Below, piece by piece: positions 2,979-12,205 of a stretch of 64,000 nt of DNA. The stretch is from the NCBI RefSeq assembly GCF_000026545.1, contig NC_011601.1; one strand, given 5' to 3'. The position numbers and the translations under genes were made by a program. This stretch comes from Escherichia coli O127:H6 str. E2348/69 (lineage in GTDB: Bacteria > Pseudomonadota > Gammaproteobacteria > Enterobacterales > Enterobacteriaceae). A model generated the notes under the pieces. It was not told the origin of the DNA, ran no database searches, and saw only the letters and a list, made by a program, of their open reading frames with translations. Within the stretch, counting starts at the first letter, position 1, and every line of letters begins with the position of its first letter.

Positions 2979-3887
2979 TTATTCTTCGCGGATGCCGGAA
3001 AGTTCTGCACGGGAGAGCACCAGACGGGCGCGATCGATAACCGGACCGTCCACCATCTTGCCGTTCAGGGAAACCACGCCGAGGCCTTCGCGAGCGGCGG
3101 CTTCAGCGGCTTCTACGACGCGGCGGGCGTGATCCACTTCTTTCTGGGTCGGTGCGTAGAGGTTGTGCAGCAGATCAATCTGACGCGGGTTGATCAGCGA
3201 TTTGCCGTCAAAGCCCAGCTGTTTGATGTGGGCGGCTTCTTGCAGGAATCCGGCTTCGTTGTTAGCGTCGGAATAGACGGTATCGAACGCCTGAATACCC
3301 GCAGAACGCGCGGCCTGCAAAATGGAGCAGCGAGCGAACAGCAGTTCAGTTCCTTCCGGGGAGCGTTCTGTACGCAGGTTGCGCACATAGTCTTCTGCAC
3401 CGAGGGCGATACCGATCAAACGCTCGGAAGCGTGAGCGATTTCTACCGCGCGGGTAATGCCCAGCGGAGATTCAATCGCCGCCAGCAGGCCGGTGCTGCC
3501 GGGTTCACGACCACAGGCTTTTTCGATGCGCAGGATCTCTTTTTCGATATCCAGAACATCCTGAGCGGTATCGGTTTTCGGCAGACGCACAACGTCCGCA
3601 CCACCGCGAACGACGGCTTCCAGGTCGTTAACACCCCATTCGGAATCCAGCGCGTTTACACGCACAATGGTTTCAATATCGCGATACAGCGGATGTTGCA
3701 GCGCGTGGTAAACCATGCGGCGGGCGGTGTCTTTTTCACGCAATGCCACGGAGTCTTCGAGGTCAAACATCAGGGCATCAGCCGGGTAGATGAATGAGTT
3801 GCTGACCATCGCGGCATTGGCACCTGGCACAAACAGCATGCTGCGGCGGGTGCGAGTTTTACGTTGTTGCAGCGAAGCGGAAATCAT
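2979..3887 (-). CDS. citE: citrate lyase beta subunit (citryl-CoA lyase)
   Basis: ORF-track frame trimmed to ATG giving 302 aa (MISASLQQ...); ATGA overlap with citD stop. Confidence 0.9.
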
Positions 3888-10906: not shown

Positions 10907-10936
10907 AAAACCCGCTTAATCAGCGGGTTTTTTTTG
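10907..10936. terminator. bidirectional rho-independent terminator between cspE and crcB
   Basis: hairpin cccgcttaatcagcggg flanked by T-run on + strand and T-run on - strand. Confidence 0.7.
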
Positions 10937-11324: not shown

Positions 11325-11410
11325 TGCAAAATCCTGCTATTTGATTTGTATGAATGATAAGTGTAACGCCGAATAATCGCCGTTGGCGAATTTTACGACT
11401 CTGACAGGAG

Positions 11411-12205
11411 GTGGCAATGCTGGTTGCCGCAGGACAGTTTGCTGTTACATCTGTGTGGGAAAAGAACGCTGAGATTTGTGCCTCGTTGATGGCGCAGGCG
11501 GCGGAAAACGAGGTTTCGCTGTTTGTCCTGCCGGAAGCATTACTGGCGCGTGATGATCATGATGCGGATCTTTCGGTTAAATCAGCACAGCTGCTGGAAG
11601 GCGAATTCCTCGACCGTTTACGGCGAGAAAGTAAACGTAACATGATGACGACAATTCTGACGATTCATGTTCCTTCAACACCGGGGCGCGCGTGGAATAT
11701 GCTGGTGGCGCTACAGGCAGGAAACATCGTCGCCCGTTATGCCAAACTGCATCTCTATGATGCATTTGCCATTCAGGAATCACGCCATGTTGATGCTGGT
11801 AATGAAATAGCTCCGTTACTGGAGGTGGAAGGGATGAAGGTCGGTCTGATGACCTGTTATGACTTACGCTTTCCAGAGCTGGCGCTGGCACAGGCATTAC
11901 AGGGAGCTGAAATCCTGGTACTTCCTGCCGCCTGGGTTCGTGGGCCGCTCAAAGAGCATCACTGGTCAACGTTGCTTGCCGCTCGTGCGCTGGATACCAC
12001 CTGTTATATGGTGGCGGCGGGGGAGTGCGGGAATAAAAATATCGGGCAAAGCCGGATTATAGATCCCTTTGGCGTCACCATTGCGGCAGCGTCAGAAATG
12101 CCTGCACTCATTATGGCGGAAGTGACGCCCGAACGTGTGCGTCAGGTACGCGCGCAACTGCCCGTCTTAAACAACCGTCGCTTTGCGCCGCCGCAATTAT
12201 TATGA
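11411..12205 (+). CDS. ybeM: carbon-nitrogen hydrolase (nitrilase superfamily) protein
   Basis: 264-aa intact ORF; position matches ybeM. Confidence 0.75.

Follow-up and report, generated by a model that had tools for sequence, protein, structure and literature searches.

Has Escherichia coli K-12 lost an enzyme that most of the species keeps, and if so, by which lesion and with what consequence? Studies of E. coli metabolism use K-12 as their reference strain; it lacks an intact YbeM, which most natural isolates have. In K-12, ybeM has been used as a pseudogene and neutral insertion site (PMC7242477). We examined the locus in a stretch of 64,000 nucleotides from E. coli O127:H6 str. E2348/69 (contig NC_011601.1), hereafter called the window. 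Positions 11417–12205 very probably hold an intact, ancestral, and vertically inherited ybeM that codes for a 262-residue amidase of the Nit1 branch, and that K-12 lost by deletion of a single G. Both the intact gene in E2348/69 and the frameshift in K-12 are already recorded in public annotation. Our additions are descriptive: the exact lesion, which most likely arose only once and occurs in about 16% of complete genomes, and two substitutions in K-12 (V33A and V37A) that are consistent with later decay. We establish here the intact frame, the family, the catalytic residues, and the predicted fold of the gene product, together with the position, frequency, and polarity of the K-12 lesion.

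Reading Frame and Genomic Context

The initial annotation placed a continuous frame of 264 codons at 11411–12205. An uninterrupted, GTG-initiated frame of this length is indeed found on the + strand in the open reading frame (ORF) listing of the 64-kb window. The frame as such stands, but the length of the product has to be corrected, because the true start is the ATG at 11417. The coding sequence (CDS) comprises 789 bp (11417–12205, + strand) with 262 codons plus TGA, as defined by the ORF, the RefSeq CDS of E2348/69, Pfam, and NCBIfam. This ATG is the RefSeq start in E2348/69, and all 14 aligned orthologs begin at the same codon. Direct reading of the sequence reveals a Shine–Dalgarno motif, AGGAGG (11406–11411, + strand), 5 nt before the ATG. 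Since the GTG at 11411–11413 overlaps this motif, its use as a start codon is unlikely. Comparison of the ORF listing with the RefSeq start and with the N-termini of orthologs suggests that the two additional in-frame codons, GTG GCA (11411–11416, + strand), are probably untranslated and an artefact of mechanical ORF calling.

The gene sits between crcB and tatE as part of the conserved backbone pagP–cspE–crcB–ybeM–tatE–lipA–(ybeF)–lipB. Over the 1,001 bases around it, the window shows 100% identity with the E2348/69 record NZ_CP059840.2, where RefSeq names the product "deaminated glutathione amidase" (WP_001304807.1). Among the 5,426 complete genomes of E. coli, 5,424 match the ybeM region, all but one of them at an identity of at least 95%, and the same annotation is used throughout. 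The exact YbeM protein of the window occurs in at least 1,000 public contigs. The GC content is 53.5% for ybeM and 51.3% for the window; we see no sign of horizontal acquisition.

In 7 of the 40 listed hits, the divergent intergenic region between crcB and ybeM differs in length by 3 bp. The variant with 3 additional bp in strain N39 (L012, 126–220, corresponding approximately to window 11325–11416) leaves the YbeM protein unaffected. We considered this intergenic region as a possible site of an RNA element such as a fluoride riboswitch and rejected the idea, as Rfam returned no match at E ≤ 1. Upstream, a match to the Rfam cspA thermoregulator (RF01766; 10487–10935, + strand; 138.6 bits against a gathering threshold of 78) spans the leader and the gene of cspE, and a strong hairpin with a T-run (10907–10931) lies between the convergent genes cspE and crcB. 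Downstream, a remnant of ybeF (13838–14202, − strand) lies between lipA (12637–13602) and lipB (14423–15064). This gene for a LysR-type regulator is intact in K-12 (b0629, 954 bp) and degraded in the window strain, which is the reciprocal of the situation at ybeM. In RefSeq, the window copy carries a frameshift and an internal stop and lacks its C-terminus, and alignment with K-12 ybeF reveals deletions of about 402 bp and about 203 bp in addition to small indels.

Family, Catalytic Residues, and Fold

Assignment of the encoded protein to the nitrilase superfamily, as proposed in the initial annotation, is borne out by a match to the Pfam family CN_hydrolase (PF00795; 142.9 bits against a gathering threshold of 23.2; E = 1.4e-41), in which residues 3–245 cover profile positions 2–255 of 256. 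An open frame of 262 codons with a Pfam match of this quality is not a chance ORF. Among the curated NCBIfam models, NF033621 (de_GSH_amidase) recognizes YbeM with 452.5 bits against a cutoff of 355 and over profile positions 2–260 of 260. YbeM lies outside the clade described by NF043013 (Yersinia-type deaminated glutathione amidase), which scores 83 bits against a cutoff of 500. The model NF007757 (YafV-type amidohydrolase or omega-amidase) gives 61.7 bits against a cutoff of 249. We take this model (NF007757/PRK10438) to represent YafV, E. coli's own omega-amidase-like family; the low score therefore implies that YbeM and YafV are different proteins. YbeM also falls far below the cutoffs of the curated models for aguB, nitrilase, formamidase, and Lnt.

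The Glu-Lys-Cys triad is in place. An HMMER alignment with Caenorhabditis elegans NitFhit puts Glu40 in the VLPE motif (codon 11534–11536), Lys110 in the YAKLHLYD motif (11744–11746), and the nucleophile Cys147 (11855–11857, all on the + strand) onto residues 54, 127, and 169 of NitFhit, which we take to be its catalytic triad (E54, K127, and C169). Glu121 in the QES motif (11777–11779, + strand) aligns with the "mES" segment of NitFhit and presumably corresponds to the second Glu in the superfamily's Glu-Lys-Glu-Cys tetrad. YbeM therefore contains both the triad and the second Glu by which nitrilase superfamily members are recognized. Glu40, Lys110, Cys147, and the tripeptide Q120-E121-S122 are invariant in the 14 orthologs.

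Among proteins of solved structure, the best sequence matches are NitFhit (1ems; 3e-30, 108.8 bits) and Saccharomyces cerevisiae Nit2 (4h5u; 2.5e-27, 99.2 bits). Matches to proteins of the omega-amidase type are weaker (mouse Nit2, 2w1v: 3.6e-22, 82.4 bits; yeast Nit3, 1f89: 1.1e-19, 74.2 bits). An AlphaFold2 model of YbeM computed from the alignment of 14 orthologs reached a pLDDT of 79 and a pTM of 0.83, with low confidence for residues 115–123, including Glu121, and for the C-terminal tail. A Foldseek search with this model returned 213 PDB matches at E ≤ 0.001; every one of the 50 entries listed is a CN-hydrolase, and the highest TM is 0.84. The best matches are Nit2 from Kluyveromyces lactis and S. 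cerevisiae (TM 0.84, E ~1e-23), followed by mouse Nit2 and NitFhit. The top 14 matches are fungal Nit1 orthologs, and the top matches include 4hgd, a structure with a bound endogenous peptide-like ligand. According to the model, YbeM is predicted to adopt the alpha-beta-beta-alpha sandwich fold of the nitrilase superfamily. Within this superfamily, YbeM is nearer to the Nit1 orthologs than to the omega-amidases, by a moderate margin (109 and 99 bits versus 82 and 74 bits).

The Lesion in K-12

The initial annotation took ybeM of K-12 to be a pseudogene, and the public record agrees: NC_000913.3 carries b4581 (788 bp, 658031–658818) as a pseudogene, and PGAP marks ybeM as "frameshifted" in MG1655p. 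Hence, the K-12 gene is neither intact nor equal in length to the window allele. The two loci share about 97% identity, and their direct alignment suggested a cluster of small indels; the closer intact allele of the enterotoxigenic (ETEC) strain H10407 reduced this cluster to a single event in which the G at CDS nt 200 (window 11616) was lost. In the window, codon 67 reads CGT (Arg; 11615–11617, + strand) with G11616 present and in frame, so that this allele does not carry the deletion; the pairwise alignments show C-TT for K-12. The nt-200 deletion is the sole length lesion of K-12 ybeM. Beyond codon 66 the reading frame is thereby shifted and meets TGA TGA at codons 76–77. An N-terminal product from the K-12 gene would end well before K110 and C147, and a product of downstream restart would lack E40.

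Relative to H10407, K-12 has two further changes, T98C (V33A) and T110C (V37A), both nonsynonymous, and zero synonymous changes. The sites correspond to window 11514 and 11526 and to positions 3129 and 3141 of the K-12 MG1655 locus (L003). V37 is invariant among orthologs. These substitutions are consistent with decay of the gene after its inactivation in K-12.

Frequency and Origin of the Deletion

The exact 71-nt K-12 sequence spanning the lesion occurs in 859 of 5,424 complete genomes, K-12 included (~16%). The sampled nonidentical hits were all 72 nt long and contained the extra base. The carriers comprise K-12 derivatives (MG1655, C600, DH5alpha, and J53) as well as isolates from human stool, blood, and urine, from chicken, dog, and cucumber, from bovine mastitis, and from river water. 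Over 1,471 bp, six wild carriers differ from H10407 by nothing but the deleted G. Since these six sequences share one background, and since the deleted G lies outside any homopolymer run, a single origin of the deletion on a haplotype of phylogroup A is most likely. The deletion is a natural polymorphism.

The haplotype with both V33A and V37A is found in 365 genomes, and each sampled one is K-12-like. This confinement suggests that the deletion came first and the decay in K-12 later. The deletion alone is present in about 494 of the approximately 5,059 genomes that do not have the K-12 haplotype (~10%). As roughly one in ten non-K-12 genomes lacks a functional gene, the contribution of ybeM to fitness is likely to be small.

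We also considered recurrent, independent inactivation of ybeM and rejected it, because the apparent truncation alleles proved to be artefacts of assembly or sequencing. A cluster of 215-residue proteins (P0046) derives from assemblies in which lipA and tatE are broken as well. A 214-residue form (P0051) reflects a 1-bp deletion in an A-run near nt 618 that is present in 0 of 5,395 complete genomes. A 222-residue form (P0063) comes from a fold-back contig with a tail that is the reverse complement of ybeM (Logan contig ERR14950426_11766, L011, 1179–1263). The allele of UTME-9 (L006) belongs to an assembly full of errors, in which ybeM has 61 gapped positions. Along with the fold-back contig, homopolymer errors and uncorrected long-read assemblies are the causes behind these artefact loci (L006–L011). 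With all other truncations explained in this way, the nt-200 deletion is the only established lesion.

Conservation and Polarity

A protein database search identified 262-residue orthologs in E. fergusonii (82% identity), Citrobacter (78–84%), Leclercia (73–76%), Salmonella (73–74%), Kosakonia (73–76%), Enterobacter (73%), and Scandinavium (72%). In an alignment of 14 enterobacterial sequences, all proteins are 262 residues long, the alignment is free of gaps, and E40, K110, E121, and C147 are invariant together with the surrounding motifs. The window strain, which we take to belong to phylogroup B2, differs from H10407 at 18 nucleotides of ybeM and at three residues (E32D, D66G, and H124R). 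The corresponding values (dN 0.0059, dS 0.078, dN/dS 0.076) indicate that the intact gene is under purifying selection. From this ratio and from the conservation of the protein, we infer that intact YbeM is functional.

Intact ybeM is found in the window strain, in H10407, and in records of O157:H7 and ST131. The assumption that the intact form is the ancestral one holds up: the outgroup orthologs are intact, colinear, and 262 residues long; the gene is intact in varied strains of E. coli; and the deletion sits on one derived haplotype, where removal of one base from the intact H10407 allele yields the K-12-type allele.

Expression and a Candidate NsrR Site

In the uropathogenic (UPEC) strain CFT073, RNA-seq detected transcription of ybeM, with a 0.30-fold change under NO in a triple mutant, and ChIP-seq located an NsrR peak 345 bp inside the gene; an earlier ChIP-chip study in K-12 also saw NsrR bound at ybeM (PMC5320621). 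CDS position 345 corresponds approximately to window 11762 and falls inside the sequence ATGATGCATTT (11757–11767, + strand), which lies within the CDS at codons Y114–F117. This candidate half-site agrees at 10 of 11 positions with AAGATGCATTT, a pattern that we take to be the NsrR half-site. Matches of this type occur three times in the window against 1.8 expected, which is no excess over chance. The coincidence of ATGATGCATTT with the NsrR peak is suggestive, and its regulatory relevance is uncertain. Since the conserved Y-D-A-F codons place a constraint on the same bases as well, NsrR binding may be fortuitous.

In a simple scan, the + strand upstream of ybeM contained nothing resembling a sigma-70 promoter, and promoter and terminator scans around the gene gave nothing above shuffled expectation. 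An out-of-frame ORF of 47 residues that begins with MFLQHRGAR lies inside ybeM (11667–11810, + strand). In a published screen, pieces of UTI89 ybeM read out of frame caused filamentation on over-expression, among them one of 29 bp that encodes MFLQRRGAH; full-length ybeM did not (PMC6206680).

Proposed Function and Alternatives

By homology, YbeM would be a cytoplasmic amidase that hydrolyzes deaminated glutathione, the 2-oxo analogue of glutathione that arises from transaminase side reactions, to 2-oxoglutarate and Cys-Gly. This activity would be that of EC 3.5.1.128, the Nit1-type deaminated glutathione amidases. Catalysis via a cysteine thioester, with one Glu as a general base and assisted by Lys and a second Glu, is standard chemistry in the nitrilase superfamily. 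In YbeM, Cys147 would attack the carbonyl of the amide, giving a thioester-linked acyl-enzyme, with Glu40 as the general base. Lys110 and Glu121 would stabilize the tetrahedral intermediate or oxyanion, and water would then free the acid from the acyl-enzyme. Deaminated glutathione as the substrate of YbeM and metabolite repair as its physiological role are probable assignments, based on homology and on the name curated by NCBI.

For Nit1, two papers give the conversion of deaminated glutathione to 2-oxoglutarate and cysteinylglycine, and both credit Peracchi et al. 2017 (PMC7041631; PMC10452834). Our literature search on ybeM found no experimental paper on the bacterial enzyme. The study by Peracchi et al. 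is said to have assayed YbeM from non-K-12 E. coli.

An intact and functional YbeM could act on a substrate other than deaminated glutathione, such as 2-oxoglutaramate, 2-oxosuccinamate, or another small amide, and its database name would then have been over-transferred from eukaryotic Nit1. Proteins of the Nit1 type and of the Nit2 type both match YbeM well (109 and 99 versus 82 and 74 bits; TM 0.84 versus 0.83), and the Yersinia-type model NF043013 fails with 83 versus 500 bits. We consider a different substrate unlikely, however, since YbeM passes the curated cutoff of NF033621 over its full length, the YafV model reaches just 61.7 versus 249 bits, and the best matches by sequence and by fold are Nit1 orthologs. 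One paper also equates NIT1 with YbeM and NIT2 with YafV (PMC8788347).

The frame could also be open by chance in the window strain, with ybeM silent or decaying here too as a cryptic gene heading for loss. The gene is dispensable, as the frameshift in 859 of 5,424 genomes testifies; loss of Nit1 produces no obvious phenotype in mice, yeast, and Arabidopsis (PMC7041631); and our simple scan saw no sigma-70-like site on the + strand upstream of ybeM. Nevertheless, such decay appears very improbable in view of a dN/dS of 0.076 between phylogroups, a length of 262 residues and catalytic residues that stay constant from Escherichia to Salmonella and Kosakonia, a near-perfect Shine–Dalgarno motif before ATG 11417, and the transcription and regulation of ybeM in CFT073 (PMC5320621). 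In addition, the broken K-12 allele gained two nonsynonymous and zero synonymous changes, one of them at the invariant V37, a contrast that fits constraint on the intact allele. We attach practically no credence to a K-12 frame that came first, with the window allele restored later by insertion of one base: all outgroup orthologs have 262 residues and are colinear with the window protein, the frameshifted reading stops at codons 76–77, and only one haplotype, identical to that of H10407, carries the deletion. We found no evidence in favor of the K-12 frame being original. The preferred reading thus remains an intact, ancestral Nit1-type amidase gene that was inactivated in the lineage of K-12. 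We would entertain only as a long shot that loss of ybeM was favored in a successful phylogroup-A lineage, to which K-12 and about 10% of the other sequenced genomes belong, for example through altered glutathione-derived metabolite pools, or that the intragenic NsrR site has a regulatory role independent of the enzyme.

As K-12 lacks the YbeM amidase, metabolic models of this strain and measurements of deaminated glutathione in it would not be representative of the species.

Comparison with Known Systems

The window gene is identical in sequence and locus to E. coli YbeM as recorded in RefSeq (WP_001304807.1; NCBIfam NF033621), and we found no difference between the two. K-12 MG1655 carries the orthologous locus (b4581) without G200 and with V33A and V37A, whereas the window allele is intact. 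With the Nit1 proteins of known structure (1ems; 4h5u and 4hgd), YbeM shares the predicted fold (TM ~0.84) and a Glu-Lys-Cys triad in register, and these proteins are its top-scoring solved relatives. Sequence identity to eukaryotic Nit1 is 27–30%, and YbeM differs from these enzymes by its shorter chain (262 versus ~290–340 residues) and by having neither a Fhit fusion nor a targeting sequence. The omega-amidases (2w1v, 1f89, and YafV, NF007757) resemble YbeM in superfamily, fold, and catalytic residues, but match it less well; unlike Nit1, these enzymes use 2-oxoglutaramate as the substrate.
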